Positions 3,385 through 45,764 of a stretch of DNA of 64,000 bases are shown here, piece after piece. The notes beneath the pieces are model-generated. The model was not told the origin of the DNA. It made no database searches and was given only the letters and a program-made list of their open reading frames with translations. A program made the position numbers and the translations under genes. Every line of letters starts with the position of its first letter. Position 1 is the stretch's first letter. Source of the stretch: a virus; the UHGV virus genome UHGV-1366123. One strand, given 5' to 3'.

Positions 3385-4881
3385 ATGATCAATTGTAAAC
3401 AGATCAGAGACAAGATGTCGGTGTCTTATTTCGACGAAAACGGAAACATTGCGATATCTGACATAACAATAGACGATCGTGAAAAGTACGTATGGACAAA
3501 GACAACCGAAGATGATAAGTTTCGTGATAAGACTTACGTATCCCAAGACGGATTTCCAGTTAAAAAGGAACGTAAGTCCTATCTCGACAAATATCGCAAG
3601 ATCGAGTTCTTGCTGTCTCTGCCAGAACGTTTACAAGCGAAGATTTTCTCAAACAATCAACCACGTAAGTTCTTCTGGGATATAGAAACCGAGGTGTTTG
3701 ATGATTTCCCCGATGCAGGAAACCCTGTGGGACGAATCTTCACGCATCAGTATTGTGATGAGTTCGGGAATGGTACTGTCATGGGGATCAAGCCACTTTC
3801 ACAGGTGCAAATCGAATCTATCGAACAGAAGATCAACGACTATCTTTCACAAATCACCGATAAAACACTTCATCAGAGGTATAAGTTCCGTTACATTTAC
3901 TACCCCGATGAGTTCACGATGAATAAAGACTTCGTCGAGAATCACGCAACACGGATGCCGTGTATTTTCGGCTGGAACGTGCTGAAGTTCGATACAAGAT
4001 ATCTCGTCAACAGGTGTAAGAAGACGAACATTGATCCTACGATTTTGTCCCCGAAGAGGATGCTTTACTCGACGATTGCGAAAGATAAGTTTGATCATTC
4101 ATCGAAAATTGAAATCGAACTTCCTCTTCATCGACCAATCATCGACTACATGCAAATCTTTGAGTTCTTTGATAGATCGATTAAGCAGAAGTCATCAATG
4201 TCACTCGACTTTATCGCATCGGAGATCCTTGGTGTCAAGAAGATCCATCATTCCGAAACTCTGATGGAACTCTATGAGAAGGACTATGAACGTTACGTGC
4301 TTTATGGTATCATCGATACCTTCCTCGTGGCGTTGATCGATAAGAAGTGCAGAACATTCGAATCAATGAGCGTTCTTGCAAACCTTCTACGTGTCGAAGT
4401 CGCTCAATCGATGTTCGTCAGTGTTGGGATCGAAACACTCTTGTGTGACTACTATTACAAGCATTACAACAAAGTGTTTGTAAAGGATTATGACAAGCAG
4501 ATTCCCGAAGGTGAAACTTACAGTGCAGGATTCGTTCTACAACCAGGTATTGGTGTTTATGACGGCATCGTCATCTATGACTACGAATCACTGTTCCCTT
4601 CAATTATGCAGATGTTGAACGTTGGTGAAGATGTTTACCTCGGTCATACCGATGATCAAGGTAAAACTTACGTGGACAAACTCGGTGAAGAACACGAACT
4701 TGACGAATCGATGTGTTATTCATCAAGTGGTGCAGTTTACTCAAAAAACAGAGATTCCGCAATTCGAACGATGATTTCGAACATGTTCAACAAACGAGTA
4801 GAAGCAAAACACAAAGAAGCAGAAATCAAAGCAGATATTAATCACTTAAAGCAGATATTAAAAGATAACTTCGGACATTAA
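3385..4881 (+). CDS. family-B DNA polymerase, N-terminal fragment (3'-5' exonuclease domain plus polymerase motif A only)
   Basis: Exo I FFWDIETEV, Exo II CIFGWNVLKFDTRYL, Exo III YGIIDTFLV, pol motif A IVIYDYESLFPSIM. The ORF terminates about 100 aa later, before motifs B (KxxxNSxYG) and C (YGDTDS). Confidence 0.7.
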   Translation: MINCKQIRDKMSVSYFDENGNIAISDITIDDREKYVWTKTTEDDKFRDKTYVSQDGFPVKKERKSYLDKYRKIEFLLSLPERLQAKIFSNNQPRKFFWDIETEVFDDFPDAGNPVGRIFTHQYCDEFGNGTVMGIKPLSQVQIESIEQKINDYLSQITDKTLHQRYKFRYIYYPDEFTMNKDFVENHATRMPCIFGWNVLKFDTRYLVNRCKKTNIDPTILSPKRMLYSTIAKDKFDHSSKIEIELPLHRPIIDYMQIFEFFDRSIKQKSSMSLDFIASEILGVKKIHHSETLMELYEKDYERYVLYGIIDTFLVALIDKKCRTFESMSVLANLLRVEVAQSMFVSVGIETLLCDYYYKHYNKVFVKDYDKQIPEGETYSAGFVLQPGIGVYDGIVIYDYESLFPSIMQMLNVGEDVYLGHTDDQGKTYVDKLGEEHELDESMCYSSSGAVYSKNRDSAIRTMISNMFNKRVEAKHKEAEIKADINHLKQILKDNFGH

Positions 4882-5151: not shown

Positions 5152-6741
5152 ATGAACGCTGTAGATGTAAAAAGTGGATCAGAAGCCAGAGAGCTGATCC
5201 TCGTTGGTGCAAAGACGATCCACGACGTTGTTGGGTCTACTCTGGGACCTGGCGGTCGAAATGTCATCATCAAGCACAACACGTACGATGTACCACAGGT
5301 CACTAAAGATGGTGTGACTGTAGCAAGAAAGATGAAGCTACAGAACTATTGGCACAACATAGGCTGTCAACTCGTAAAGCAAGCATCAATGCGAACTGCA
5401 GTTGATGCAGGTGATGGAACAACGTCTTCTGTTGTGATGGCGTATACGATGATGAAACTAATCGACGGACTTCTAAATGAGAATCCCGAGATTGATGTTC
5501 ATCGACTTCGTCACGAAATGGAAAAGATGAAGGATGTTCTCATTGAAAAGCTTCGGGAAATCGCCACACCGATCGTTGATATTCAGCAGGTCTTCGATAT
5601 CGCAAAGATCTCCACGAACAATGATGAGAAACTTGCAGGTCTTCTTGCAGAGATCTATGGGAAGATCGGTAAAGATGGGATAATCGTTCTTGAACAATCA
5701 CAACTTTCTGATATCACCTATTCGATCGAATCTGGATTCCGATTTGATGGCGGTTGGCAGTCTCATTATTTCGTAAAGGACAAATCAAAGATGTCGTTTG
5801 GATCTGACGATTGTGCAATCTTCATCACAAATCACAAGATCCAAGACGGAAAGACGATGCTCTCGGCACTTTCAAGAATCTATGGTACAGGTGTCCGTGA
5901 CCTTTTGATCATTGCGGAAAACATCGAAGGTGAAGCACTATCGACCTTGATCGCCAATAACCAGAGTGGGAAGATGAACATTTGTCTCGTCAATCCACCA
6001 TATTACGGACAGAAGCGTGAAGAATACCTCACTGACCTCTCCATTTCTCTTGATATGAAGCCACTGATGGTGGGAGACCAATCCGTCACCCCTCTTTCGT
6101 TCACAGAAGAGTACTTCTCTTGCGGTCGAAGCGTCTTTGTGGATAAAAACACCACAACGATCAGAAATGACAAGGAAAGTGTATCGTCTGCCGTCGAAGA
6201 GCATATCTCAAATCTGAAGTCTCTTATGGATTCCGACGAGGAAGACAAGGAATGGATCGAGAAGAGAATAGCGACCCTAAGGTCATCAGTTGCCGTCATC
6301 AAGGTCGGTGGGAATTCAGAATCTGAAGTTTATGAACACAAGGATAGACTTGAAGATGCGATTTGTGCTATAAGATCAGCATACAAGGATGGAATAGTCG
6401 CAGGTTGTGGTATCACGTACCTAAGACTAATCTCTGCACTTGATCCTTCTCTTGACACGTTCCATATCTTGAAATCTGGACTTGAATCCGTGTTCAAGAA
6501 GATTATGATCAACTCATGCATATCAGAGGAAGAAGAATCGTCGATTCTCTACTTCATAGGTGAAGATGAAGCGTATGGTTATGATGCCAAGAAACGTCAG
6601 AAGTCGTATAACTCGATCCAAGATGGCATCATCGACTCGGCACGTGTTATAAAAAACTGTATCGAGAACTCGATATCGGTCGCTATCATGTTTATGATCT
6701 CTGACAACATCGTTATGGAAATCGATGAATCGATTATTTAG
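5152..6741 (+). CDS. groEL: GroEL-like chaperonin (Hsp60 family)
   Basis: 529 aa; AVDAGDGTTSSVVMAYTMM (GroEL ATP-binding DGTTT-like motif); equatorial/apical/intermediate domain pattern. Confidence 0.8.
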   Translation: MNAVDVKSGSEARELILVGAKTIHDVVGSTLGPGGRNVIIKHNTYDVPQVTKDGVTVARKMKLQNYWHNIGCQLVKQASMRTAVDAGDGTTSSVVMAYTMMKLIDGLLNENPEIDVHRLRHEMEKMKDVLIEKLREIATPIVDIQQVFDIAKISTNNDEKLAGLLAEIYGKIGKDGIIVLEQSQLSDITYSIESGFRFDGGWQSHYFVKDKSKMSFGSDDCAIFITNHKIQDGKTMLSALSRIYGTGVRDLLIIAENIEGEALSTLIANNQSGKMNICLVNPPYYGQKREEYLTDLSISLDMKPLMVGDQSVTPLSFTEEYFSCGRSVFVDKNTTTIRNDKESVSSAVEEHISNLKSLMDSDEEDKEWIEKRIATLRSSVAVIKVGGNSESEVYEHKDRLEDAICAIRSAYKDGIVAGCGITYLRLISALDPSLDTFHILKSGLESVFKKIMINSCISEEEESSILYFIGEDEAYGYDAKKRQKSYNSIQDGIIDSARVIKNCIENSISVAIMFMISDNIVMEIDESII

Positions 6742-8041: not shown

Positions 8042-9220
8042 ATGATGGAAAATGTACAAGGAATCTTCGATTTTTCTACGGAAACAGAGTCGTTTTCTCA
8101 TGACGAGTTCATAAGAAAGTTCATCCCTTTGTTCAAGTCTGTGCTCGTATCCAAGTTCGGTACGTCATACAAAGCGAAGATAAGTATGACAAGCCGTGAT
8201 ATTAATTGTGGATGTCCACATTGTGGAGATGGTAGCAGTTCATACAAGAGGAGATTTCACATATACTTCCAAAACTACTCTTATAAATGCTACAACGATT
8301 GTCACAAGCCGTTTGGCTCTTTGTACAATCTCATACATGAGTACGGACTTCAGTACAGTTTCACGCATGTAGAACTTTCTCACATCAAGCGAGTTTTCGA
8401 GGACTTCATGAAAAGTGGTCTTGCGAAAACCGACAAATCGATCAAAGTCACTGGTCGTGACATTATCGACAAAGATGGTCACATATCGACGCAAGTCCCA
8501 GAAGTCAACGATTACGCATTTCCAAGAGAAGAGATAATGGGCGCAAAACATCTCCGAGAAGTCAGAAGATCACCTGCGCTCATCGAATATCTCCGAAAAA
8601 GAGCAGTGATCACCGATAAAACCGATCTTTACGAAAACAGATTGAGGACGTTTGCATATAACGAGAAGTATGAAGACCTTTATGTTTTCAATCTTGCGAA
8701 GAATATGCGTGATGTGATAGGTGTGCAGATCAAGCACCTCTCTCCGAAGTCACGGAGAAGGTTTACAACGATGTCATGGTCTAAAATATGGACTGACATT
8801 TTCCAGCTTCAGCCGAAGGGTTTCGAAGAGCTTTCCGTGAAGTTTGACAAGATATCAATGATATGGAACTCGTTGCATATTGACTTCTCTCGAAGATACA
8901 ACATTCTTGAAGGGACTTTCGATGCCTACTTCGTGGACAATTCGATCGCATGTTGGGGACTTTCAAACTTTGTCTATAACAAGAGCGCATACTACATCAC
9001 CGATAATACGCTCCTTGATATGGCAGGCAAAAAGAAGTCATTGGAACTGATAAATGGTGGTTACAACACCTTCTTGTGGGCAAAGTTTGCAGAAGATTTC
9101 CCAGATATTGCTTACACGTGCAAAGATATGAACGACATAGTCAGAAAATTCCCAAACTTCAATATGGGTGTCTTGGAGAAGTACTTTGGTAATGATGAAT
9201 TTGATACACTTTACATATGA
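8042..9220 (+). CDS. zinc-ribbon protein, possible DNA primase (gp61-like)
   Basis: CGCPHCGD...YKCYNDCHK zinc-binding pairs near the N-terminus; sits among replication genes; no clear Toprim motif seen. Confidence 0.35.
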   Translation: MMENVQGIFDFSTETESFSHDEFIRKFIPLFKSVLVSKFGTSYKAKISMTSRDINCGCPHCGDGSSSYKRRFHIYFQNYSYKCYNDCHKPFGSLYNLIHEYGLQYSFTHVELSHIKRVFEDFMKSGLAKTDKSIKVTGRDIIDKDGHISTQVPEVNDYAFPREEIMGAKHLREVRRSPALIEYLRKRAVITDKTDLYENRLRTFAYNEKYEDLYVFNLAKNMRDVIGVQIKHLSPKSRRRFTTMSWSKIWTDIFQLQPKGFEELSVKFDKISMIWNSLHIDFSRRYNILEGTFDAYFVDNSIACWGLSNFVYNKSAYYITDNTLLDMAGKKKSLELINGGYNTFLWAKFAEDFPDIAYTCKDMNDIVRKFPNFNMGVLEKYFGNDEFDTLYI

Positions 9221-9626: not shown

Positions 9627-9842
9627 ATGGACGATTTAAAGCAAAACGTAGTAATAGCCGTAATCTCGATAATAATAACCGCAATATTCGGATTGTTAGT
9701 GATTTCGATATCGGACTTCATAGATGCGAGATCATCAAAAGACAACCTCATCCACTACAACTTCCAGATATCAGAACCAGAACCCACAATAGTTATTGGC
9801 GTAGGTGAAAATGCTGAAGGTAGCGACACGTGGTCGTTCTGA
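9627..9842 (+). CDS. small membrane protein
   Basis: VVIAVISIIITAIFGLLVISI TM segment. Confidence 0.3.
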   Translation: MDDLKQNVVIAVISIIITAIFGLLVISISDFIDARSSKDNLIHYNFQISEPEPTIVIGVGENAEGSDTWSF

Positions 9843-9898
9843 AAACATATCGTCTTTTAAATAACGAAACCTTTATACCTCGGTGTTGAAAGACGATT

Positions 9899-10123
9899 AT
9901 GACGATCAAGGATTGTATAATAGACATTTGTAAGTCTATAGGAAAAATCTCAGTTTCTGATATCTTGAAATATGTTCGGAACAATGGATGGTTTGAAAAA
10001 GATCTCTCCATTGACATTGATGACGATGACCAGACCAGTATTGGAAAAATACAAAAGTTCGTAAGAGATGGTATAGACACCATAACGGAATCGGAATCGG
10101 AAGAAGTAAACTCTGAAGAATAA
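9899..10123 (+). CDS. small acidic protein, weak member of the downstream paralogue family
   Basis: MTIKDCI N-terminus resembles the MTxxEYI family start; acidic tail. Confidence 0.3.
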   Translation: MTIKDCIIDICKSIGKISVSDILKYVRNNGWFEKDLSIDIDDDDQTSIGKIQKFVRDGIDTITESESEEVNSEE

Positions 10124-10128
10124 CGACA

Positions 10129-10539
10129 ATGACGATCAAATCATACATCAATCAACTCGAAGACAGAGACATCATCCGAGCATATGTCGCCTGTGTGATA
10201 CACCAATACGAGGACAAAGTCGGAACTAAAGATCCCGATGAGTTCTTGAAACTGGAATATGAAGATGTTTCCAAACATATCGATGAAATAATCAAGAATG
10301 CTCGTACGACGTTCATGTGTTACGCCACTAATGAGGAGGAAATGGTAGAGTTCGTCAAGAGCGACGGATATATCGAACTTCTCCGAGAAGGAGGTGACTA
10401 TGAAGATGTCCTTCAAATGTACGGAGGTGATGAAAACGCAATGATGGTTGCTTACTTCTATGATCTTATAGAAGATGATGTGTTTGAACACGACGGTTAC
10501 TTTTTCTATATGATGGAAAATGACTACGAACGTGGATAG
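10129..10539 (+). CDS. acidic paralogue family member P1
   Basis: MTIKSYINQLEDRDIIRAYV...DGYFFYM; very D/E-rich. Confidence 0.55.
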   Translation: MTIKSYINQLEDRDIIRAYVACVIHQYEDKVGTKDPDEFLKLEYEDVSKHIDEIIKNARTTFMCYATNEEEMVEFVKSDGYIELLREGGDYEDVLQMYGGDENAMMVAYFYDLIEDDVFEHDGYFFYMMENDYERG

Positions 10540-10581
10540 CTTCCGCAACAAATAAAGAAACAATCTTAATAAGAAACAAAT

Positions 10582-10983
10582 ATGACCGCAGAAGAATATG
10601 TCGGATCGTTACCCGACAAAGATCTCATCTTTGCGTATATCAATTGCATCATCTTCGAATATCTCACAGGTGCGGAATTCGAAGATTTTGATATCTTCAT
10701 ATTCCACAAACAGTATGAAGATGTTAAAGATTATATCGATGCATTTGTGGAAGAAGCTCGTGATCGTGCACTCACCGACTACCCAATCACATCTGAAAAA
10801 GATGTTCTCAGATACTACGATGAAACTTGTTATGGTCATGAAAACGATCCAGATGTCGATATCCAAGAAGGAAGAAAGAGATTCGAAGATGATCCATTAG
10901 GAATGCTCCACCAATTACTCGATACGATGAGTGATAACTGGGCTGAATACAACGGTTATTATTTCGTGGTTGGTGCTTGGTAA
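10582..10983 (+). CDS. acidic paralogue family member P2
   Basis: MTAEEYVGSLPDKDLIFAYI...EEARDRALTDYPITSEKD...NGYYFVV. Confidence 0.6.
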   Translation: MTAEEYVGSLPDKDLIFAYINCIIFEYLTGAEFEDFDIFIFHKQYEDVKDYIDAFVEEARDRALTDYPITSEKDVLRYYDETCYGHENDPDVDIQEGRKRFEDDPLGMLHQLLDTMSDNWAEYNGYYFVVGAW

Positions 10984-11010
10984 TATAAAAAATCGTAAAA
11001 GAAAGAAACA

Positions 11011-11400
11011 ATGACTGTAAGAGAATACATCAACACATTTGAAGACGCAGGTCTCATTCTTGCGCATATCGAACTTGTCAAAGATGGGAAGTATGGGAAA
11101 GAAACCGTAGATTTTGATATCGACAACGATGAAATCGAAGATGTCAAAGACCAAGTCGATAAGCTCATATACAAATCATTCGATAGGTGCGTGTATCCAG
11201 ATCCAATAAGAACTGAGGAAGACATCTACGAGTATCTCAAGACTTGTGTTGGTTATGGTACTGATGATGATCCAACATACTTAGAATATAAGGCAATATG
11301 GGAAAAAGATCCATGGACTAAGTTCTTCCAATCGATTGACGAACAGTGTCCTTGGTTTGAACAAGATGGTTACTACTTCATGGACACTTATAACATGTAA
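11011..11400 (+). CDS. acidic paralogue family member P3
   Basis: MTVREYINTFEDAGLILAHI...DPWTKF...DGYYFMD. Confidence 0.6.
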   Translation: MTVREYINTFEDAGLILAHIELVKDGKYGKETVDFDIDNDEIEDVKDQVDKLIYKSFDRCVYPDPIRTEEDIYEYLKTCVGYGTDDDPTYLEYKAIWEKDPWTKFFQSIDEQCPWFEQDGYYFMDTYNM

Positions 11401-11419
11401 AAAGGAAAGAGAAAGAAAT

Positions 11420-11821
11420 ACGACTGCAGAACAATATATCAAGACACTACCAGATTCGGAGCTTATTCTCTCTTATATCGCATTGGTAGTATCTGAAGAC
11501 ATCGAAGGAACGGAAGGTATGGATGCCGACATCAACAACGATGAATACGAAGATGTCAAAGACCAAGTCAACACACTCATCGAACAAGCTCGTGATCGTG
11601 CGATCATCAATTATCCTATAAGATCCGAAGAAGATACTCTCAAATATTTCGAAGACACCTATGGTGAATTCATTGAGAATAATGAGGATCTCCAAGAATA
11701 TGAGAAGAAATGGAAAGAAAACCCATGGAAGGAATTCAAAGATTCTCTTAATGAAGTGAAAGCTTATTACAAGAATGGTAAGTGGTACGAACACAATGAT
11801 TATTACTTCATAGTCTGGTAA
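11420..11821 (+). pseudogene. acidic paralogue family member P4 with ATG->ACG start
   Basis: Paralogues begin atg-act-g..; here it reads aat-ACG-act-gca (T-to-C at start-codon position 2). The track ORF 11336-11821 only extends upstream by chance, inside P3. Confidence 0.4.
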
Positions 11822-11848
11822 TTCGTATTCATAGAAAAGATAAAGATT

Positions 11849-11891
11849 GACGTGGCGAAATGTTTGATTTCGCCACGTCTGTATATAAAAG
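11849..11891 (+). promoter_or_regulatory. terminator hairpin plus TGTATATAAAAG promoter-like motif (cassette boundary)
   Basis: gacgtggcgaaat...atttcgccacgtc stem, then tgtatataaaag. Confidence 0.45.
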
Positions 11892-11907
11892 AAAATTCTG
11901 ATATAAA

Positions 11908-12252
11908 ATGAAAACGAGATTAAGAGAATATATCGAAACGCTACCAGATTCATACATCGTTTCTCAATATCTTACATGTGTTGAACTTGGATATACGCAC
12001 GATAAAGAGATTATCGATCTATACGAACAACATGCTCATGATCGTCTACTCATCGATCGTCCAATACACACTAGTTATGACGTTATGGAATACTTTGATG
12101 ATACCTTTCCCGATTGGGAAAACGATCCAGATCTCGTAGAAGAAAGAAAGAAATGGGAAGAAGATCCATGGGGAAAATTATACAAAGTACTCGACGAAAT
12201 GGGTACTTGGTGTGGATATGGTGGTTGTTATTTCTTGGCTGAAAAACGATAA
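11908..12252 (+). CDS. acidic paralogue family member P5
   Basis: MKTRLREYIETLPDSYIV...FPDWENDPDLVEERKKWEEDPWGKL. Confidence 0.6.
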   Translation: MKTRLREYIETLPDSYIVSQYLTCVELGYTHDKEIIDLYEQHAHDRLLIDRPIHTSYDVMEYFDDTFPDWENDPDLVEERKKWEEDPWGKLYKVLDEMGTWCGYGGCYFLAEKR

Positions 12253-12292
12253 CACAACTTCTGATAGATATATAAAAAATAACGATAGAAAA

Positions 12293-12643
12293 ATGGAAAA
12301 TTTAACGCTAATAGAATATATAAGGACGCTACCTAATAGTGAACTCATCGAAGCGTACATGGGATCTCTCGCAATTGGACAAATGAGAGATAAGGAAATT
12401 ATTGATATGTACGAACAACATGCTCGTGAACGTTTAATCTTTGATCATCCAGTGCATAAAGAAGATATTATTGGAATCTTTGATGAAATGTTTCCAGATT
12501 GGGAAAACAACCCAGACCTCGTAGAAGAGAGAAAGGAATGGGAAGAATATCCATGGTATAAGCTACGACAAGCACTTGATGCAACGTACGGTAATAATTG
12601 GCATGAATACCAAAGTTATTATTTCGTTGACAATGTTCGATAA
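12293..12643 (+). CDS. acidic paralogue family member P6
   Basis: MENLTLIEYIRTLPNSELIEAYM...FPDWENNPDLVEERKEWEEYPWYKL; near-duplicate of P5. Confidence 0.6.
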   Translation: MENLTLIEYIRTLPNSELIEAYMGSLAIGQMRDKEIIDMYEQHARERLIFDHPVHKEDIIGIFDEMFPDWENNPDLVEERKEWEEYPWYKLRQALDATYGNNWHEYQSYYFVDNVR

Positions 12644-12685
12644 CACAGTTCACTCACGAAAACACTGATAGAAAATAACAAGTCG

Positions 12686-12730
12686 GATGTGACGAAAGGT
12701 TCAAACCTTTCGTCACATCTGTATATAAAG
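12686..12730 (+). promoter_or_regulatory. terminator hairpin plus TGTATATAAAG motif
   Basis: gatgtgacgaaaggtt-caa-acctttcgtcacatc, then tgtatataaag. Confidence 0.45.
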
Positions 12731-12763
12731 AAAGAAAAACAATCTTAATAGAGAAGAGAGAAA

Positions 12764-13156
12764 ATGACTGTAGAAGAATATATCAAGACGCTACCCGACG
12801 CAGATCTCATCTTTGCGTACATTGCGTGTGCTGGAACAGAAGATATCGACGTTGGTGAAGACCTTCGTGAACTCGATATAGAAAACGACGAATATGAAGA
12901 CTTTAGTGATGAGGTCGAAGAACTCGTAGAACAAGCACGTGACCGTGCCATAGCTGAATATCCTATCAGCTCTAAGGAAGATGCTCTGAGATACTTCGAC
13001 GAGTGCTATGGTGATGATCTTGAGGATGATGAAGAACTCCAAGAATGGAGAGAGAAATGGGAAGAAGACCCATGGACACATTTCTATCATGTACTTGACG
13101 AAATGGGTGATTGGTATGAAGACAACGGTTATCACTTCAGAGCTGAAGAGTGGTAA
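12764..13156 (+). CDS. acidic paralogue family member P7
   Basis: MTVEEYIKTLPDADLIFAYI...EQARDRAIAEYPISSKEDALRYF...DPWTHF...NGYHF. Confidence 0.6.
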   Translation: MTVEEYIKTLPDADLIFAYIACAGTEDIDVGEDLRELDIENDEYEDFSDEVEELVEQARDRAIAEYPISSKEDALRYFDECYGDDLEDDEELQEWREKWEEDPWTHFYHVLDEMGDWYEDNGYHFRAEEW

Positions 13157-13174
13157 TAAGAAGAAAAGAGAAAT

Positions 13175-13621
13175 ATGACTGTAAAAGAACATATCAACAC
13201 ACTTAAATATCCAGGTGTCGTCTTTGCGTATATCGAATGTGTTTTAAAAGAAGGCATCGATGTAGTTGAGAATTTACGTGATCTCGATATAGAGAACGAC
13301 CAGTATGAAGATGTTAAAGATCTGGTCGATGAACTCGTAAAACAGGCAGACTATTGTTCTCTCGCTGATTATCCAATCATAACCAAAGAAGATGTTCTGA
13401 CATACTTTGAGGATTCCTATTGGGAATACCATGGTGAAAACGGAGAGTACATAAAACTCGTGGAATATAAGCGTGAATGGAAGAAAGATACATGGAACAA
13501 GTTCCGTCGATTGATTGAGAGAACTGTAGAGGATGTCAGAAGGGAAAATAATAGTAACGATACTTTGTATGAATGCAGAGGTTACTACTTTATAATCGAT
13601 CCTCAAGGGCACAACTCGTGA
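13175..13621 (+). CDS. acidic paralogue family member P8
   Basis: MTVKEHINTLKYPGVVFAYIECV...YPIITKEDVLTYFED...RGYYFII. Confidence 0.6.
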   Translation: MTVKEHINTLKYPGVVFAYIECVLKEGIDVVENLRDLDIENDQYEDVKDLVDELVKQADYCSLADYPIITKEDVLTYFEDSYWEYHGENGEYIKLVEYKREWKKDTWNKFRRLIERTVEDVRRENNSNDTLYECRGYYFIIDPQGHNS

Positions 13622-13646
13622 GCTGACCATAATAGAAAATCGAGAC

Positions 13647-13690
13647 GGTGGCGAAAGGTTTAAACCTTTCGCCACATCTGTATATAAAAG
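13647..13690 (+). promoter_or_regulatory. terminator hairpin plus CTGTATATAAAAG motif
   Basis: gtggcgaaaggttt / aaacctttcgccac stem, then tgtatataaaag. Confidence 0.45.
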
Positions 13691-13722
13691 AAACGAAAAA
13701 GAACAAAAACCTCCGTGAAATT

Positions 13723-14058
13723 ATGACTATTAAAGAATACTTAGAAGGTCTCTTCGAATCGAAGATGTATCTCAAGTTTTACGAGTTGTTCGGTGACAGA
13801 TTCGGATTCTCTCTTGAAGATGACTATTCTCAGTTTGAAAAGAAAGTAGACTATTTCGTCGAAACTGCAGATATCGAATTCTTCTGTCTTGAAGAAAACC
13901 TCGAAGACACTGTTGACAAATTCTTCATCATTCCAATGTTGAAGAACATGAGCGACATCAGTTATATTCGAAAGTTCTTCGATTATGAATCGTATAAGCA
14001 GATGCTCATTGATCGTGGTTACACAGTCAAAGACAACTACGTGTTCTCACCATTCTAA
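13723..14058 (+). CDS. acidic paralogue family member P9 (divergent)
   Basis: MTIKEYLEGLFES...; track ORF 13648-14058 trimmed to the ATG after the hairpin. Confidence 0.5.
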   Translation: MTIKEYLEGLFESKMYLKFYELFGDRFGFSLEDDYSQFEKKVDYFVETADIEFFCLEENLEDTVDKFFIIPMLKNMSDISYIRKFFDYESYKQMLIDRGYTVKDNYVFSPF

Positions 14059-14078
14059 ACAATAAGAAACAAAAGATC

Positions 14079-14459
14079 ATGACTATCAGAGATTATATCA
14101 GAGAAAACTGTCATATTCCTTACGAAGCAATAATTGCCTATTACGAATATGATACCAGTGTCAGTGGTATCGATATCGACTTCGAATACGACGAAAAGGA
14201 AGCAGGAGGATTCGAAGCCATGGAAATTGATATTCAGAAGGAACTTGCAGATAAACTCATCGACAAGGCTGAAAGCGTTTATCAATGTGATGAAGATTCG
14301 TTTGAAGACATGGTAAACGATCACTATATCGATCAATACATAGCCGATGGGGCTGATCCGAAGGGGATTTATCGCTTCTTCGATTATGATAAGTTCAGAG
14401 AACACCTTTTCAATGACGGTTTCTTCGAACATAACGGTTATTGGTTCATCGGGTATTAG
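14079..14459 (+). CDS. acidic paralogue family member P10
   Basis: MTIRDYIRENCHIPYEAIIAYYE...NGYWFIGY. Confidence 0.55.
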   Translation: MTIRDYIRENCHIPYEAIIAYYEYDTSVSGIDIDFEYDEKEAGGFEAMEIDIQKELADKLIDKAESVYQCDEDSFEDMVNDHYIDQYIADGADPKGIYRFFDYDKFREHLFNDGFFEHNGYWFIGY

Positions 14460-14487
14460 TCGAAAGAAACTAATAAACGTAAGAATC

Positions 14488-14543
14488 GAACGATGGGGGG
14501 GGGGTCACGTAGTTATCTTTTATTACATGACCCCCCCTCGTTC
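14488..14543. repeat. hairpin with a G10/C7 homopolymer stem
   Basis: gaacgatgggggggggggtca ... tgaccccccctcgttc. Confidence 0.45.
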
Positions 14544-14576
14544 ATTTAAATAACAAAATCTAAAGAAACAAAAATT

Positions 14577-14990
14577 ATGACGACGACTATTAGAGACTAT
14601 ATCAGAGAAAACTGTCACATCGACTATGAAGCAGTGATCGCCTACTACGAAAGTGGCTATTGTAATGTTGAAGTCGATATCGACTTCGAATACGACGACG
14701 AAAAGGAAGCAGGGGAATTCGAGACTTCGGAAGATTACGATAACTACTACTCAGAAATCGACGTTCAGAAGGAACTCGCAGATGCGATCATCGAGAAGGC
14801 AGAAGAAAACTATCAGTGTGATGATGATGGATTCGAAGACATGGTAAACGAACTCTACATCGACCCATGTATTGAAGGTGCAGCTGATCCAGACACGATC
14901 TATCGTTACTTCGACTATGATAGTTTCAGACGTGACCTTCTGATGGGTGACTACTTCTATCAAGACGGTTATTACTTCCTCGCCTACTAG
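14577..14990 (+). CDS. acidic paralogue family member P11
   Basis: MTTTIRDYIRENCHIDYEAVIAYYE...DGYYFLAY; near-duplicate of P10. Confidence 0.55.
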   Translation: MTTTIRDYIRENCHIDYEAVIAYYESGYCNVEVDIDFEYDDEKEAGEFETSEDYDNYYSEIDVQKELADAIIEKAEENYQCDDDGFEDMVNELYIDPCIEGAADPDTIYRYFDYDSFRRDLLMGDYFYQDGYYFLAY

Positions 14991-15020
14991 TCGAGAGATT
15001 CATAATATCATAAAAATCAG

Positions 15021-15052
15021 AGAGGGCAAGGAAAACTATTTCCTTGCCCTCT
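15021..15052. terminator. bidirectional terminator hairpin between convergent genes
   Basis: agagggcaaggaaa-actatt-tccttgccctct. Confidence 0.45.
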
Positions 15053-15126
15053 CCTTGTGTTTGAGCCTATTTCTCCTTGCCGAACTACCTTCACAGTCGT
15101 CAGAGATCAAGGAAAGTACCTCTCCG

Positions 15127-15834
15127 TCATTTCCTCGATTCTCTCTTCTTCACATAGTCTTGTACTTCTTTTATCTTTGTTTTTACAATTTCCACATCTT
15201 TATGCTTTCCTATACCACTTCCGTCAAGATTTCTCCAATATCTCCAATAGATCGCTCTTATCTGCATCTTCTCGATGTATCTTATCGGGAACGTACAAAT
15301 CTTGTACCAATCTTCATATGAAACAATCATTGGTTTCGATTGGAATCTTTCAAGTCTGTATGATCTGATTGCAAATTCGAAACCGCTGTTTTGAAGGACT
15401 TTCTTTGCCACATCATAATAAAGCGGAATATCCAAGATCGGTGTTTCTCCAGCGTTTATCTTTTCTATGTTTGGACTTATGACTTGCGTATTCCAAAGCC
15501 TTATTATCGTGTCGAGAACCTTTATACGCATCGACGGAGGGATAAACGACAGGTTTATCCCATAAGGAAGAAGATGACCTTCCGATGTTATCTTATAACC
15601 TATTATGAAAGTCAATGGACACCATGAGAAGAAGTCCATTTCATCCTTAGTTATAGGATCATAGAACCACGTATAAATCTTGCCTATCTTTGGAATAGGT
15701 GTTCGAGATTCTTCTCTGGGGTTCTTCTCTTTCATAACATAAACGTCATCAAACCACTTCTTTGATCTACTGACGATAGTAGAGTAAGGCGTGGTCTCGG
15801 ACATTTTCATTATGGTTTCTGATACAAGCTCCAT
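15127..15834 (-). CDS. hypothetical protein
   Basis: 235-aa minus-strand ORF, convergent with the paralogue array. Confidence 0.4.
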   Translation of the reverse strand: MELVSETIMKMSETTPYSTIVSRSKKWFDDVYVMKEKNPREESRTPIPKIGKIYTWFYDPITKDEMDFFSWCPLTFIIGYKITSEGHLLPYGINLSFIPPSMRIKVLDTIIRLWNTQVISPNIEKINAGETPILDIPLYYDVAKKVLQNSGFEFAIRSYRLERFQSKPMIVSYEDWYKICTFPIRYIEKMQIRAIYWRYWRNLDGSGIGKHKDVEIVKTKIKEVQDYVKKRESRK

Positions 15835-17496: not shown

Positions 17497-17868
17497 ATGG
17501 AAAAATCAATCAAGTTAACAAGAAACAACTTTCTTGTAGAAGAATTGTGTAAAGATGCGCTCCTCGATTTCGATTCTCCGAGAAATGTTGGTGTTGTCGT
17601 ATGTGGTAACGAGAAATATGAAGATGTGAAAGTCGGGGACAAGGTCTTCTTCGGTGAAACCAATGGTTACATGATAGAACTCAACGGCATTCGTTATTGT
17701 CTTCTGTCATATTCCGAAATGCTCGGCATTATCGAGGGTGAATGTGGTCGGGAAGATATTATCGTTGGGAGATACCGAGACCTTGATGACTACATAGACA
17801 AGCTCACACAGAAGAATCTTCTCGGTGATAATCCGATCAACATACACGAAGGTATGTTTTATAAATAA
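17497..17868 (+). CDS. hypothetical protein (weak GroES/gp31-like flavour)
   Basis: VGDKVFFGETNGYMIELNGIRYCLL; weak. Confidence 0.3.
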   Translation: MEKSIKLTRNNFLVEELCKDALLDFDSPRNVGVVVCGNEKYEDVKVGDKVFFGETNGYMIELNGIRYCLLSYSEMLGIIEGECGREDIIVGRYRDLDDYIDKLTQKNLLGDNPINIHEGMFYK

Positions 17869-41027: not shown

Positions 41028-41145
41028 CAAACCAGAATAACTTCGAAGGTTGATCTAAAGACAATCCCGATATACAGAAAAGGCGACAACTCTCTAAATC
41101 GAGTTGTCGCCTTTTCAACAACAAAAAGTGGTATCACATACGATG

Positions 41146-41216
41146 TTGTCCCTCATTGATTCGAACAAAGACTAACAGAGCCAAGGTCTGTTGTGCTACC
41201 ATTACACCAAAGGACA
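41146..41216 (-). tRNA. tRNA-Gln(TTG) candidate
   Basis: Acceptor TGTCCTT/AGGGACA with 2 GU pairs; D-arm GTGTAATGGTAGCAC; anticodon stem ACAGA/TCTGT, loop CCTTGGC (C33 is unusual); T-loop TTCGAAT. Confidence 0.5.
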
Positions 41217-41260
41217 ATTCGAATGTCCCTCCGCCGTCTACTACGTTCAAGGGACTGATG

Positions 41261-41335
41261 GGTGATGGATGGGACTTGAACCCACAACCAATAGAACCAC
41301 AACCTATTGCTCTAACCAATTTGAGCTACCATCAC
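41261..41335 (-). tRNA. tRNA-His(GTG)
   Basis: GTGATGG acceptor; D-arm GCTC-AAATTGGTTA-GAGC; anticodon loop TTGTGGT; T-arm GTGGG-TTCAAGT-CCCAT; 3' CCATCAC. Confidence 0.7.
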
Positions 41336-41423
41336 AGACGTAGTGAGAGGTTTCGCTCCTCTGAATATCTTCATCAAGAAGCACTACGTTTGATAAAAAG
41401 GTGGCGAGTTGTCCATACTCTTC

Positions 41424-41496
41424 TCAGTCTGGTAGGATTCGAACCTACATCATCTAAGAACCACCTTATAGGAATTTCCGATTATTCTACAGACTG
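41424..41496 (-). tRNA. tRNA-like gene with an aberrant anticodon arm (4-bp stem, 6-nt loop)
   Basis: Perfect acceptor CAGTCTG/CAGACTG, D-arm GAAT-AATCGGAA-ATTC, T-arm GTAGG-TTCGAAT-CCTAC, but the anticodon region TATAAGGTGGTTCTTAG does not fold canonically. Confidence 0.4.
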
Positions 41497-41862
41497 AACA
41501 ACAAACGATAATGAAGATTCAAAATGCTGAATATCTGCAAATCGGAAACTATGATTGATTCATCTTTTAGACAGCTATGGACAATACCGAATGGGGTATC
41601 AAACCAGTAACTTGAAGATTTTTATAGATTGCTGTAAGTCCATAATCTAAAAGACGTTTTTTCTATCTTTTTCGTCGAAATCTTTACTGCAGACGTTATC
41701 TATGAGCCAATTATGAAGATTCTGTTTGCTGTGTGTCTACAGATCCCGACATTAAGAATTCTTTAAAAGAACGCTTTGTGAATGATGACTTCCCAGTGGA
41801 CTACGTAGTTTTAGGAGCAATTGCATAGTAATTTGCTGTGAATCCAATAGATCATCATTTTG

Positions 41863-41947
41863 AGGAAGAACAGGGATTCGAACCCTGGGAACCTTGCAGT
41901 TCAACGGTTTTCAAGACCGTCGCAATCGACCACTCTGCCACTCTTCC
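41863..41947 (-). tRNA. tRNA-Ser(TGA), type II with long variable arm
   Basis: Acceptor GGAAGAG; anticodon arm ACGGT-CTTGAAA-ACCGT; long variable arm; T-arm CAGGG-TTCGAAT-CCCTG. Confidence 0.65.
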
Positions 41948-42292
41948 AATATTGAGAAAACGATGGAAATCAGACTTACACTATAATCCCGAAACGTCAC
42001 GATCTCGATCATCCAACCCCGTGGAAATCAGTACCACTTAGAGATTTAGCTTTAGAAAGTTGGACGACTTTCATCGATTTTCTCAAGCACCTTTTTTGTT
42101 GACAACCAGCAACTTAGGAGATAACACCCATTAGAGCAATGACCTTCCCATATTCATAGGTCTTCTCTGGATAGAGTTGATGTTCAATATTGCGATGCCT
42201 TCTCAAAATCCCAACCCTATGAAAGACTTCTCAAAGACAACCGTTGTATATCGTTTCAAACGGTACTAAGTCGCTTTTTCTTTTTATTTTTG

Positions 42293-42362
42293 CGAAGAGA
42301 AGAGGGATCGAACCTCTCTGATCTTTATGGCTAGATCATCAGACCTTTTTCTGAATCTCTTC
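42293..42362 (-). tRNA. tRNA-like gene with a non-canonical anticodon arm (8-nt loop AGCCATAA, or 10-nt loop)
   Basis: Acceptor GAAGAGA/TCTCTTC, D-arm CAGA-AAAAGG-TCTG, T-arm AGAGG-TTCGATC-CCTCT; the anticodon arm folds as GATCT-AGCCATAA-AGATC. Confidence 0.35.
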
Positions 42363-42405
42363 ATAAGTCTTATTATTTGATCTTCTTATCGGTTTCGTTT
42401 CTTTT

Positions 42406-42873
42406 TTATGTCCGTACAATATAAGCATCATAACCATACTGCAAACCATCAAAATAAGAGCTTATGTATTCATAACAACCTCGTAATGTTAGATATGCGT
42501 AATAGTCTGATCTTGAATTGTAGTTGCCATTTTGATAGCTATAACAAGCATTGGAGAAGTTGCTTATAAGCCGTTCCAATTTGGCAATGGTTTCATCAAC
42601 CTCTTCAGACGACTTCCAACGTAAGTGACTTAGTTTCACTCCTATAATGAAATCATCGATTTCTCGTTGATTTCTTTTTATCGTGAGCTTAAACTCATAG
42701 GGGCTGTCATAAGGATCGTCTTTGATATGTTCACGTGTCTTTGTTGTTGTTATTTCAACTTCAAACATCGGTTCTCCATCGTAATATATCGTCTGTACAG
42801 ATTGGAATATCTTGATGTTTGTCTTGTACACACCTCTATCAAGACCTTCATAAAACTCTGTAGGGCTAATCAT
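42406..42873 (-). CDS. hypothetical protein
   Basis: 155-aa minus-strand ORF. Confidence 0.35.
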   Translation of the reverse strand: MISPTEFYEGLDRGVYKTNIKIFQSVQTIYYDGEPMFEVEITTTKTREHIKDDPYDSPYEFKLTIKRNQREIDDFIIGVKLSHLRWKSSEEVDETIAKLERLISNFSNACYSYQNGNYNSRSDYYAYLTLRGCYEYISSYFDGLQYGYDAYIVRT

Positions 42874-42892
42874 TGATCTCTGTTTGATCAGT

Positions 42893-43846
42893 TCATTTAG
42901 TCGTAGTTTGTTTCTTCTTGATGATCATTCTAAAATAAGTCTGCTCGCCATTCACAGACAAATATTTCCCGTCGTTTCCCCTTCTGGATGTCACAATCTC
43001 AAATTGTTGAGGATTGAATTTATACAAGAATGTTATCGGAACCCCCATGCAACCATTGTAATCTCGTGGTATATCCTTGACCCTATCGACATTTATACCA
43101 TCATAATTGTCGTATTTGGGATATTCATGTTCGTGTCCATAGTAGTTTTTTGTAAGCGGAATATCTTCATGTCGCATAGAGTGGTTCAAATTCGTAAACC
43201 ACAGACAATTATTGGTGGGCGTGATCATATTACCAGATTCGTCCATCCATGTTTTTTTCATGTAGGGTTCATAATGGGCTGGTATGATAAACCCAGAAAA
43301 TTCGTTCCCACGATTTACACCAAGCCATGCCTTACCATCTTGAACGGATTTGAAGATTTCTTTGTTGGTGATAGAATTGATATTCCCAATAATGAGAAAG
43401 AGCTTATCGTATCTGATCAGTTGTGTCATATATTCACGGAACAACGAAAATGGTGGATTTGTAACAACTATGTCAGATTGTTCCAGCAAATCGATACTTT
43501 CTTGACTACGAAAGTCGCCATCACCATTGAAGTAAACAACATCAGCTGTCTTTGGATCTGTATCGACGAGTTCTGTCCCTGTGTATTCAAAGAAAAAACC
43601 ACGACTGTTTTCCTTATAACAAGATGCAATCACCTTCCGAAGTCCCAATTCTTTGAAATTGGAAACGAAGTATTTGAAAAAGTTACTCGTCAGAGGATCA
43701 TCACAATTGCAATACACAACTTTCCCTTTAAAATGGCTTTCATAATGTCGCAATTCTCTTTCGATATCAATAAGTTGCGTATAGAACTCGTCGTTCTTTT
43801 GCTTTCTAGCATTACGAAGTAACTTGCTGGTTGTTGCCCTTGCCAT
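42893..43846 (-). CDS. DNA N6-adenine (amino) methyltransferase
   Basis: DIVVTNPPF catalytic motif IV (NPPF), DEFYTQ N-terminal motif, CNCDDP. Confidence 0.55.
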   Translation of the reverse strand: MARATTSKLLRNARKQKNDEFYTQLIDIERELRHYESHFKGKVVYCNCDDPLTSNFFKYFVSNFKELGLRKVIASCYKENSRGFFFEYTGTELVDTDPKTADVVYFNGDGDFRSQESIDLLEQSDIVVTNPPFSLFREYMTQLIRYDKLFLIIGNINSITNKEIFKSVQDGKAWLGVNRGNEFSGFIIPAHYEPYMKKTWMDESGNMITPTNNCLWFTNLNHSMRHEDIPLTKNYYGHEHEYPKYDNYDGINVDRVKDIPRDYNGCMGVPITFLYKFNPQQFEIVTSRRGNDGKYLSVNGEQTYFRMIIKKKQTTTK

Positions 43847-43849
43847 ATT

Positions 43850-44300
43850 TCCGTCTTTTAATATAAATCTTCAGAATAGAGAATCGTCTTATCTTTTACA
43901 TCTTCTATTTGATCAGCTTCTTTAGCTATCTTACAAACTTCATACCTATCAACAAATATCACTTTAGAAGTGTAGAAGCCTTATCGTATGTGAAAAATCT
44001 GCGTTTTATCCAGTTCTCACTTCTTGTTTCAACCTGCCATTACTTTTTAGGAACACGAGGTTCGGTCATCCATAAGAGGGCAGTCCGCAAGCGTAAATTC
44101 GGTGCTACGAACACCTACTCGATTTTTTATATGTTAGACAGTTTGAAGTTTTCTTTGTCCTTCAATGAGAATGTTCTTCGAAGCGTTTATATCTCTGTCG
44201 TGATATTCACCACATTCGGGACAAGTCCAAAACCTATCACCGAGTTTCAAGTCTTTCTTCTTGTAACCACAACATAAACAAGTCTTTGAACTTGGATAGA
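43850..44300 (-). ncRNA. putative omega-RNA/right-end region of the TnpB element (boundaries unknown)
   Basis: Inference only: omega-RNAs of IS200/IS605 TnpB overlap the 3' end of tnpB and extend into the downstream non-coding DNA; a 287-bp non-coding stretch follows the tnpB stop. Confidence 0.25.
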
Positions 44301-45276
44301 ACCTATTGATAAGAACAACTCGCTTATCATTCATAAGAGCCTTATATTGCAATATCGACTTGAACCGATAAAATCCAGACTCTTGGATAGCATTCGCAAG
44401 ATAACGATTTCCAAGCATCCCTTTAATATTCAAGTCTTCCATGAACACCACGTCGTATGATTTGAGGATCTCGTTCACAACTGAGTGGATGTAGTTCTCT
44501 TTCTTGTTCGTTATATTCGCAATCACTTTTGCAAGTCTGATTCTCTGTTTGTTCCTATTGTTTGAACCTTTGACCTTTCTGGATAGTTGACGATGAAGTC
44601 TTGTGATCTTCTTTTCCTCCTTCTTGAAGAAGTGTTTGTTTTCAAACACAAATCCATCAGAGGTTATGACGAAATCTTTCACACCAAGATCAATACCGAC
44701 TTGCTTGTTGGTCTTTTCAAACTTTACAAATTCTGCTTCGGGAATGTCGATAAGGATTGATAAGAAGAAATTCCCACTCTTGGTTTTCGAGAGAGTTGCA
44801 CTTCTTATGTTATCTTTGTACTTCTGTAAGCGTTTGTGATACAAGTCAGAACAACGGAATCTGAGTTTTTGAAGAGAAGTGATTAGTGTTATATGTTTCG
44901 TTTCGAAAGTGTTCCTCTTTGAAATAGCATTACGAGGAAACAATGCTGATTGTTTGTCTTTCTTTGATTTAAACTTTGGAAAGCCTTTATGATGATTGAA
45001 GAAGTTTTGATAAGCACCGACCATCTGTTTGATTGCTTGGTTCATCACCTTTGTGTTCTGTTCTCTCAACCAAGCATATTGTTCATCTTTCAACAATGAT
45101 CCGTGGAAATATTTCGATAGATCGCTTTCGCTTAGGTTTGTCTTGTCCGTTTCATAAGCCTTTTGTTTTCTATCGAGCATGTGATTATAGACAAAACGAT
45201 AAGCACCAAGAACCTTGTTGAGTTCTTGTTCCTGCGCTTTGTTTGGATATAACCTTATTTTAATCGCTCTAAACAT
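44134..45276 (-). CDS. tnpB: TnpB (IS200/IS605-family OrfB, RNA-guided RuvC-like endonuclease)
   Basis: N-terminus MFRAIKIRLYPNKAQEQELNKVLGAYRFVYN; C-terminal zinc finger CLCCGYKKKDLKLGDRFWTCPECGEYHDRDINASKNI. Confidence 0.8.
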   Translation of the reverse strand: MFRAIKIRLYPNKAQEQELNKVLGAYRFVYNHMLDRKQKAYETDKTNLSESDLSKYFHGSLLKDEQYAWLREQNTKVMNQAIKQMVGAYQNFFNHHKGFPKFKSKKDKQSALFPRNAISKRNTFETKHITLITSLQKLRFRCSDLYHKRLQKYKDNIRSATLSKTKSGNFFLSILIDIPEAEFVKFEKTNKQVGIDLGVKDFVITSDGFVFENKHFFKKEEKKITRLHRQLSRKVKGSNNRNKQRIRLAKVIANITNKKENYIHSVVNEILKSYDVVFMEDLNIKGMLGNRYLANAIQESGFYRFKSILQYKALMNDKRVVLINRFYPSSKTCLCCGYKKKDLKLGDRFWTCPECGEYHDRDINASKNILIEGQRKLQTV

Positions 45277-45295
45277 GCCTATGATTGATTATCCA

Positions 45296-45520
45296 TTACA
45301 GATCTTTTTCTTCTGCTAATATCCTATCGAATTCCAATCTCAGACAGCGAAGATAGCCGTTCATGTATTCATACTTAGTCTGCTGGAAGAACTTCTCATC
45401 TGGTGTCAACTTCTCAAACTCTAAAGATTGGATGAAATCGAGTTGCTTCAAAGTGACTTCTTTGAACCTTTCATAGCTCTTTAAAGCTTTCCGTCTCCTC
45501 TGTCCAAATTCTTCAAACAT
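45296..45520 (-). CDS. hypothetical small protein
   Basis: 74-aa minus-strand ORF ending 19 bp before tnpB. Confidence 0.3.
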   Translation of the reverse strand: MFEEFGQRRRKALKSYERFKEVTLKQLDFIQSLEFEKLTPDEKFFQQTKYEYMNGYLRCLRLEFDRILAEEKDL

Positions 45521-45526
45521 AACCTA

Positions 45527-45739: not shown

Positions 45740-45764
45740 TTTGCTTGTTTTTATTTTTAAAAAG

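Follow-up and report, generated by a model that had tools for sequence, protein, structure and literature searches.

Positions 9899–14990 of a 64,000-nucleotide stretch of the viral genome UHGV-1366123 (this whole stretch is called the window below) are occupied by twelve successive open reading frames (ORFs), all on the + strand, which we number P1–P12 in order. Eleven of them, P2–P12 (10129–14990; 111–148 amino acids, aa), are mutually homologous and make up a single family of acidic proteins, as a family hidden Markov model (HMM) matches every one of them, with E-values from 7e-19 to 1.5e-47, and finds no other match in the window. A primase-like gene (8042–9220) lies on one side of the array and a convergent gp2-like gene (15127–15834) on the other. 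The original prediction for this locus, made from the sequence alone, had described a consecutive same-strand array of 11–12 paralogues; the family HMM confirms the array and eleven of its members, while the twelfth, P1, falls away. The ORFs are as follows.

P1, 9899..10123, + strand: acidic ORF of 74 aa, isoelectric point (pI) 4.28, heading the block; family membership not demonstrated
P2, 10129..10539, + strand: 136 aa, net charge −22, HMM E-value 5.8e-27; orthologues in all relatives
P3, 10582..10983, + strand: 133 aa, net charge −22, HMM E-value 6.2e-30
P4, 11011..11400, + strand: 129 aa, net charge −19, HMM E-value 5e-30
P5, 11420..11821, + strand: 133 aa counted from the conserved start position; family member by HMM
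P6, 11908..12252, + strand: 114 aa, short form without the acidic loop, HMM E-value 4.4e-22
P7, 12293..12643, + strand: 116 aa, family member by HMM, 50% identical to P6
P8, 12764..13156, + strand: 130 aa, the most acidic member, 35% D+E, net charge −37
P9, 13175..13621, + strand: 148 aa, family member by HMM, fast-evolving
P10, 13723..14058, + strand: 111 aa, family member by HMM, the most conserved between phages
P11, 14079..14459, + strand: 126 aa, family member by HMM, with an ArdA-like C-terminal motif, FFDYDKFREHL...GYWF
P12, 14577..14990, + strand: 137 aa, net charge −32, of all members the nearest to canonical ArdA

We rejected P1 as a twelfth member because hhalign gave a probability of only 1.3% for its relationship to the family and the family HMM did not match it; P1, which starts with MTIK and whose orthologues are kept in relatives with a ratio of nonsynonymous to synonymous substitution rates (dN/dS) of about 0.1, is treated here as an associated small ORF. 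P5 carries the codon ACG at its start position (11420–11422), where every paralogue and orthologue has ATG, which could be a recent loss of the start codon, a shift of the start site or a sequencing error. With translation starting instead at an in-frame ATG at 11366, the protein would be 18 aa longer and the gene would share 35 nucleotides (nt) with P4; the close relative P0001 is 91% identical to P5 in its N-terminal half and 97% in its C-terminal half.

The family proteins are strongly acidic, with an aspartate plus glutamate (D+E) content of 20.7–35.4%, a pI of 4.05–4.58 and a net charge of −9 to −37. Their median net charge per residue is −0.145 (range −0.090 to −0.285), compared with −0.019 for the 51 other ORFs of the window, only one of which overlaps the family range (Mann–Whitney p = 1e-7), so the extreme D/E richness remarked on in the original prediction is genuine and marks the family as charge outliers within the window. 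Three conserved sequence regions had been described as well; all three exist, but two of them are confined to subgroups. The N-terminal motif MTxxEYIxxL is common to all eleven proteins, whereas the mid motif ARDRA..YPI is found in P3, P5 and P8 only, with degenerate forms in P6, P7 and P9, and DPW in P4–P8 only, with degenerate forms in P3 and P9; P10–P12 carry YFDYD..R.L in place of the DPW motif. The F of the C-terminal GYYF is the sole invariant residue, present in 58 of 58 family sequences.

The C-termini of P10–P12 resemble that of ArdA, which experiments have established as a DNA mimic that inhibits Type I restriction-modification (R-M) (PMC2731889), and this likeness supplied the lead for a relationship that we then tested in several independent ways. 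When the family was compared by hhalign with ArdA alignments of rising diversity, the probability rose from 20.8% to 58% and 64% (E-values 1.1e-3, 9.9e-5 and 6.5e-5), with an identical alignment each time, in which P12 residues 69–137 pair with residues 95–164 of ArdA from Tn916, collinear to both C-termini. With Tn916 ArdA as a single sequence the probability was 0.6%, showing that the signal emerges only with diverse ArdA alignments. With P12 as the tblastn query, 50,697 phage genomes yielded only three weak matches, each on a gene whose annotation is that of an ArdA-like antirestriction protein; the phages concerned are two T7-like phages of Aeromonas and Desulfovibrio phage ProddE; on the Pfam ArdA model, which has a cut-off of 27 bits and gives 47.9–145.7 bits for control ArdA proteins, the protein of Aeromonas phage PT2 scores 47.9 bits and that of ProddE 121.5 bits. 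P12 and the PT2 protein are 36% identical over 87 residues (BLASTP). When P12 was compared with two Pfam-validated ArdA proteins, composition-preserving shuffles gave z-scores of 9.8 and 10.7, which argues that acidity alone is insufficient to explain the match.

Searching in the other direction, an exhaustive HMMER comparison of the family profile with 1.84 billion cluster representatives yielded 16 clusters at E ≤ 1e-3. The sole match from outside the family, and the weakest significant one (E = 6.3e-4), was P0061, a 73-aa protein that is itself a C-terminal fragment of Pfam ArdA (47 bits, profile positions 90–152 of 155), and from within the family P0038 showed a sub-threshold Pfam ArdA match (13.2 bits, profile positions 85–154). 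ArdA is built of three domains, spanning residues 3–61, 62–103 and 104–165 (McMahon et al., PMC2731889), and the C-terminal half of the family can, judging from these alignments, be assigned with high confidence as homologous to domain 3, in a stretch that probably also takes in the end of domain 2. The family is a divergent ArdA relative that stands outside formal Pfam membership (PF07275). Homology to a structural or housekeeping family had been named as the outcome that would speak against a counter-defence role; the homology that emerged was to ArdA instead.

To relate the family to functional residues, we mapped it onto ArdA through the hhalign alignment, with residue numbers and roles taken from the ArdA structure paper, in which the anti-restriction motif (residues 126–140) lies in the dimer interface and its Y137 and I138 are essential, as is the VF motif, I160-F161 (PMC2731889). 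F161 of ArdA falls on the invariant F of the family, L147 on L or I in 58 of 58 sequences, and I138 on an aromatic residue throughout (F, W or Y). The stretch Y137-I138-D139-Y140 corresponds to (Y/F)-F-D-Y in P10–P12 and is remodelled into W-E-x-D-P-W in P3–P9; P12 alone keeps R145-D146-L147 as RDL and has Ile at both of the dimer-contact positions L127 and L134. AlphaFold2 (AF2) models of P8 and P12 were of high confidence (predicted local distance difference test score, pLDDT, 91 and 93.5, respectively; predicted template-modelling score 0.82) and contain two N-terminal helices, formed by MTxxEYIxTLPDxxLIxAYI, and a variable, very acidic loop at the place where ArdA has domain 1. A whole-chain fold match to ArdA was weak but reproducible, and in a Foldseek search of the P12 model against BFVD the first rank went to a P11 orthologue, followed by 13 matches of which 11 are named antirestriction or ArdA; the BFVD matches include proteins of T4-like Vibrio and Prochlorococcus phages.

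Existing names reflect this relationship only in part. UniProt labels the P11 orthologue A0A8S5VU31 and the P12 orthologue A0A8S5VU55 'Antirestriction protein', so the family, which the original prediction had not recognised, was already named at one end. In nr, the P4 orthologue is called 'matrix protein' and P10 orthologues are called RNA polymerase 'Rpb5-like', both misnomers, and the remaining members are 'hypothetical'. We found no database record or publication that treats these genes as one family or array, nor any description in the literature of tandem or multi-copy ArdA-like arrays in phages.

From the remote homology and fold similarity to ArdA, we consider it probable, with appreciable room for doubt, that the products of the eleven genes are diverged, paralogous ArdA-like anti-restriction proteins acting as DNA-mimic decoys, in line with the counter-defence role first proposed for them. 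Each protein would begin with a helical module peculiar to the family and continue, through a loop that is variable and strongly acidic, into a C-terminal module, the homologue of ArdA domain 3, with the counterparts of ArdA's dimer interface (the anti-restriction motif) and its essential VF strand. By analogy with ArdA, we infer that the proteins dimerise through the C-terminal module (PMC2731889, PMC12707154) and that the dimer displays a rigid carboxylate surface imitating the DNA backbone; ArdA itself is an elongated homodimer, its carboxylates following about 42 bp of bent DNA. Such a dimer would occupy the DNA-binding cleft of host defence enzymes, with Type I R-M complexes as the first candidates and other DNA-binding defence proteins as possible further ones, and the unmodified phage genome would thereby escape cutting. 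Most differences between the paralogues lie in the acidic loop and in surface helices, which suggests decoys adapted to distinct DNA-binding defence proteins within the host population.

Several results weigh against this assignment. The Pfam ArdA model matched none of the 12 ORFs even at E ≤ 1, let alone at its gathering threshold of 27 bits; scans of all 12 ORFs with PHROGs and PADLOC gave only noise, and a profile search of PDB sequences produced nothing at E < 0.08, ArdA not being among the matches listed. The best hhalign probability is no higher than 64% and its alignment spans only the C-terminal ~55–65 residues, no family–ArdA alignment covers ArdA residues 1–94, whose conserved N-terminal domain is absent from the family, and P2–P9 taken individually show little or no direct ArdA signal and are tied in through the family profile only. 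Domain 3 of ArdA is mainly structural, so that homology there alone is no proof of DNA mimicry. ArdA is, moreover, generally active against many Type I systems, a precedent that leaves eleven variants unexplained, and the late-type promoter motif described below is unexpected for a protein acting at DNA entry.

The same set of properties could also describe acidic decoys aimed at nucleoid or transcription proteins, such as HU-type proteins, RNA polymerase or topoisomerases, and serving host takeover. DNA mimics do reach targets of this kind: interactions with H-NS are known for Ocr, ArdA and Arn, and inhibition of RNA polymerase for Ocr (PMC12707154); the extreme acidity of the family would suit such a role, and late-type promoters would fit a function in replication and packaging. 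The detectable homologues are, however, anti-restriction proteins only, and the copy-number variation, the chimeric genes and the one member with a dN/dS near 1 reported in the following paragraphs fit an arms race with variable defences better than housekeeping targets. We regard this alternative as improbable.

Next, we compared the array with seven related ones (L001 and L003–L008), which hold 5, 7, 7, 7, 9, 10 and 11 family genes. Gene order in the relatives is conserved and corresponds to a subset of that in the window, whose array is among the fullest. Each paralogue has positional orthologues in related phages, mostly 75–99% identical, at a synonymous divergence (dS) of core genes of about 0.3, indicating that the duplications predate the clade and that the array is old. 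Within the window, the neighbours P11/P12, P6/P7 and P8/P9 share 63%, 50% and 45% amino-acid identity (67–75% at the DNA level), and all remaining pairs of paralogues 20–54%. The original prediction had seen near-identical neighbour pairs and, from them, recent duplications; with the best pairs no more than 45–63% identical and with positional orthologues in relatives, both claims had to be abandoned. P6 has no counterpart at an identity of at least 65% in the seven arrays, where the gene at that position groups with P7, and a gene identical to P6 was found in contigs L018–L023.

The array genes are under purifying selection, 2–4 times more relaxed than that on their core neighbours: orthologue dN/dS is 0.05–0.21, compared with 0.02–0.07 for neighbouring core genes, which indicates that the genes are functional. 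P10 is the most constrained, with orthologues at 94–99% identity and a dN/dS of 0.02–0.08. The exception is P9, for which two allelic types exist, with differences spread along the whole protein and a dN/dS of 0.7–1.3 (orthologues in L001, L005 and L007). Diversification, as first proposed, is present in a moderate form, seen in dN/dS values above those of the core neighbours, in P9, and also in copy-number variation and chimeras. That the paralogues are old, individually conserved and divergent mostly in the acidic loop and surface helices suggests sub-functionalisation towards different targets rather than dosage.

Chimeric genes in the relatives point to the way in which the array changes. 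The second gene of the L001 array joins an N-terminal half of P3 type (77% identity) to a C-terminal half of P8 type (85%), in an array from which the P4–P7 types are absent; P0002 joins the N-terminal half of P5 (80%) to the C-terminal half of P7 (88%), and P0006 the N-terminal half of P5 to the C-terminal half of P8. All three combinations coincide with missing intervening genes. They are what unequal crossover between paralogues would be expected to produce, since such an event deletes the intervening genes and creates new pairings of N- and C-terminal modules, and the comparison of arrays shows units being gained and lost, evidently through unequal homologous recombination between paralogues. 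Degraded relatives in other metagenomic samples (P0056, P0057, P0059 and P0060), comprising a frameshifted P3, a truncated P4, a fusion of P2 N-terminal and P4 C-terminal parts that has lost a large internal segment, and a truncated P9, indicate that single units are being lost in natural populations.

Presence/absence variation among close relatives, these truncated and frameshifted variants and the lack of an ATG in P5 could together be taken to mean that the array is a functionless by-product of a hyperplastic region, consisting of selfish or near-neutral ORFs multiplied by cassette-mediated recombination, and the array does contain cassettes similar to the PeSL cassettes of T4-like phages (PMC4122927). 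Purifying selection on orthologues (the above dN/dS values being obtained at dS 0.2–1.0), the confidently predicted fold and the gene order kept across relatives all speak against this explanation, which we hold to be very improbable indeed.

The cassettes and the other non-coding features at and within the array are listed here, with folding energies and z-scores where a hairpin is present.

Late-promoter-like motif, 9858..9869, + strand: TAAATAACGAAA, ending 29 nt before P1; kept before the P1 orthologue in 7 of 7 relatives
Cassette 1, 11849..11889, + strand: 13-bp stem-loop followed by TCTGTATATAAA, before P6; −22.7 kcal/mol, z −7.0
Cassette 2, 12684..12729, + strand: 17-bp stem-loop followed by TCTGTATATAAA, before P8; −27.5 kcal/mol, z −8.9
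Cassette 3, 13643..13688, + strand: stem-loop followed by TCTGTATATAAA, before P10; −23.1 kcal/mol, z −6.0
G10/C7-rich hairpin, 14488..14543, + strand: in the P11–P12 interval, immediately 5' of the late-like motif of P12; −33.9 kcal/mol, z −4.9
Late-promoter-like motif, 14547..14558, + strand: TAAATAACAAAA, ending 18 nt before P12; kept ahead of the final array gene in 6 of 7 relatives
Terminator-like bidirectional hairpin, 15020..15053, no strand assigned: between the array and the convergent gp2-like gene; −27.3 kcal/mol, z −7.1

The stem-loop cassette with TCTGTATATAAA occurs three times in the window, each time inside the array; relatives have the cassettes at corresponding positions and lack them wherever the module is missing, so that sequence comparison places these stem-loop and promoter-like units at the boundaries of the array's sub-blocks. 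The G10 and C7 homopolymer runs at 14488–14543 are candidates for slippage. Like PeSL cassettes (PMC2839356, PMC4122927), by which modules are shuffled in hyperplastic regions of T4-like phages (PMC4122927), the array cassettes are repeated stem-loop and promoter-like units at module boundaries of a region that shows indels between close relatives. Their sequence is distinct, however, their promoter-like half resembles the late-type motif of this phage and not a host early promoter, and at least three of the array deletions run through paralogue coding sequences and not through cassettes. Among loci L018–L023, four independent metagenome contigs start within the stem-loop of cassette 1, and in a fifth, L018, unrelated DNA of 33% GC with an AraC-type regulator is joined to the phage exactly at 11880; these breaks reflect either an assembly breakpoint or chimera at an element that is repeated and varies between strains, or a genuine hot spot of recombination.

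The consensus TAAATAA[CG]NAAA occurs nine times in the window (at 9858, 14547, 17862, 27856, 29865, 37157 on the − strand, 37203, 52680 and 63924) against 0.13 expected, and a gene always starts 9–30 nt downstream of it. The motif is similar to the T4 late promoter, TATAAATA, and is probably this phage's own late promoter of T4 type. Apart from both array ends, the motif precedes the major head protein and prohead protease genes, a close variant lies before the baseplate wedge gene, and none of the window's recognised replication and recombination genes has it; the TATATAAA of the cassettes is a variant of it with two mismatches. From these positions, the array would be transcribed at least partly with the late genes. 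A scan for sigma-70-type promoters found fewer sites than in shuffled sequences and was uninformative.

Late-type motifs at both array ends and, in variant form, in the cassettes raise the alternative that the proteins are made late, loaded into the prohead through their N-terminal motif and co-injected with the DNA, disarming restriction at entry in the manner of the T4 internal proteins (IPs) IPI*, IPII and IPIII. This alternative is compatible with ArdA-like decoy activity, to which it adds a means of delivery, and the fast DNA delivery of a T4-like phage would favour a pre-made inhibitor. T4-like phages load variable sets of small anti-restriction proteins by means of a shared 10-residue capsid-targeting sequence (PMC9026906), anti-restriction roles are known for IPI* and IP2 (PMC9026906, PMC12373910), and the array, too, is a variable set of small proteins with a shared N-terminus, MTxxEYIxxL, in a T4-like genome. 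The promoter class, however, is assigned from position only, and the N-terminal motif is found on no further ORF of the 64-kb window, in a genome of about 150 kb. The N-terminal helix is predicted as part of the AF2 fold (pLDDT about 95), which is unlike a detachable propeptide, and the (I/L)-x-E cleavage pattern occurs only in P11 and P12 and is not conserved, as their orthologues have YIKD. The IPs are also unrelated in sequence, carry a cleaved targeting peptide of 10 residues and are described as basic (PMC9026906), whereas the array proteins are extremely acidic. A capsid-targeting function of the N-terminus is unsupported within the window, and we keep delivery in the virion as an unlikely alternative.

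A bolder extension of the decoy model would join these elements into a combinatorial, pre-loaded battery, in which ArdA-like mimics are expressed late, packaged and injected, form heterodimers through the C-terminal interface, and acquire new specificities as crossover re-pairs their modules. We consider this combination rather unlikely. Its targets would be the many phase-variable Type I R-M systems and other DNA-binding defences of oral Bacteroidota, and DNA-mimic anti-defence proteins would then have a route of delivery and a mechanism of diversification that are both new.

Returning to the reading that we favour, of ArdA-like decoys, we compared the array with known systems. With ArdA itself (PF07275; Orf18 of Tn916, PDB 2W82) the family shares the C-terminal domain including the anti-restriction and VF motifs, small size, a comparable net negative charge (−0.194 per residue in Tn916 ArdA), the weak whole-chain fold match, viral structural neighbours named antirestriction, and carriage on a mobile element that enters cells as unmodified DNA. 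It differs in that ArdA's N-terminal three-stranded beta domain (LGxYNxGxLxGxW; LGKYNEGELVGxW) is replaced by the helical module and acidic loop, in the W-E-x-D-P-W that takes the place of the interface motif in P3–P9, in its apparently late-type promoters, and in its eleven tandem paralogues, detectable ArdA being single-copy in 41 of 41 phage records among the 50,697 genomes. Short ArdA-like or C-terminal-only ArdA proteins of uncultured phages (P0061 and the BFVD entries A0A6J5MKX1 and A0A6J7WX36) are likewise small, at 73–119 aa, and have TM-scores of 0.47–0.56 to the P12 model; P0061, the one that both the family profile and Pfam ArdA match, is a lone gene on a short contig and lacks a family-type N-terminal module.

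T7 Ocr and T4 Arn, which had been offered as precedents, are likewise small, very acidic phage proteins for which the comparison rests on proposed DNA mimicry, but neither has a Pfam match among the 12 ORFs, and no similarity to them in sequence or fold emerged; the known DNA mimics are described as mutually non-homologous (PMC12707154). The tandem arrangement, as a multiplication of an anti-defence gene by recombination, also has a counterpart in gene accordions such as the amplification of T4 tifA (PMC9391042). Accordion copies are recent, identical and dosage-raising, whereas those in the array are old, share 20–63% identity, and are each conserved and matched by a positional orthologue in other phages. 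Poxvirus K3L is a further example of an accordion. The usual description of a DNA-mimic anti-restriction protein is of a single gene with broad activity, whereas this one phage keeps eleven in a row.

The window as a whole is part of a T4-like phage genome, with genes for a family-B DNA polymerase, GroEL, SSB, a primase-like protein, a gp2-type DNA end protector, a baseplate wedge protein, a Dda-like helicase, UvsX, DnaB, SbcCD, a prohead protease and a major head protein, together with six tRNA genes. Identical or near-identical proteins are found on contigs of 145–152 kb from human oral metagenomes, including Human Microbiome Project samples and PRJEB6997. The DNA polymerase is nearest to those of a Flavobacterium phage and of Prevotella Lak phages, at about 30% identity, and gene starts have A-rich leaders without Shine-Dalgarno sequences; on these two grounds, the host is probably a member of the oral Bacteroidota. 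P10, taken as the most conserved member, had no relative in 185,579 species-representative bacterial and archaeal genomes and so gave no clue to the host, and a megablast search of the region against the 50,697 phage genomes found no match. A word-indexed search of 5.8 billion proteins returned 50 relatives, unnamed or with pipeline names, on contigs that reach about 145–150 kb at the longest. The family is confined to this phage clade.

Some further features of the surroundings were recorded. Just 5' of the array, an ORF of 71 aa (9627–9842) contains a hydrophobic, membrane-like segment, VVIAVISIIITAIFGLLVISI, and is kept at 71 aa in L001 and L002. The phage GroEL (529 aa) is encoded at 5152–6741, and in L001 a gene for a GroES-like Cpn10 lies just 5' of GroEL (4288–4545); a second, weakly Cpn10-like gene follows the baseplate wedge gene (17497–17868). 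The six tRNA genes lie on the − strand at 41145–46782 and comprise Gln, His, Ser, Ile-TAT, Lys and one more (41423–41497), for which ARAGORN reports an irregular two-base anticodon.

In summary, the array is a sub-threshold branch of ArdA in which the N-terminal domain has been replaced and which has expanded into a recombining array of eleven genes. The homology is unsurprising in kind, and it is the size, the age, the mosaic dynamics and the late-type promoters of the array that are unusual. ArdA relatives exist beneath the detection limit of the Pfam model, and automatic names ('matrix protein', 'Rpb5-like') mislead for neighbouring genes of one and the same family. The late-type promoters raise the testable idea of a T4-like phage that injects ArdA-like proteins. 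More generally, the array offers a natural panel for asking what sets the target specificity of DNA mimics, and would allow the tuning of such mimics to different defences, such as Type I R-M and BREX, to be tested.

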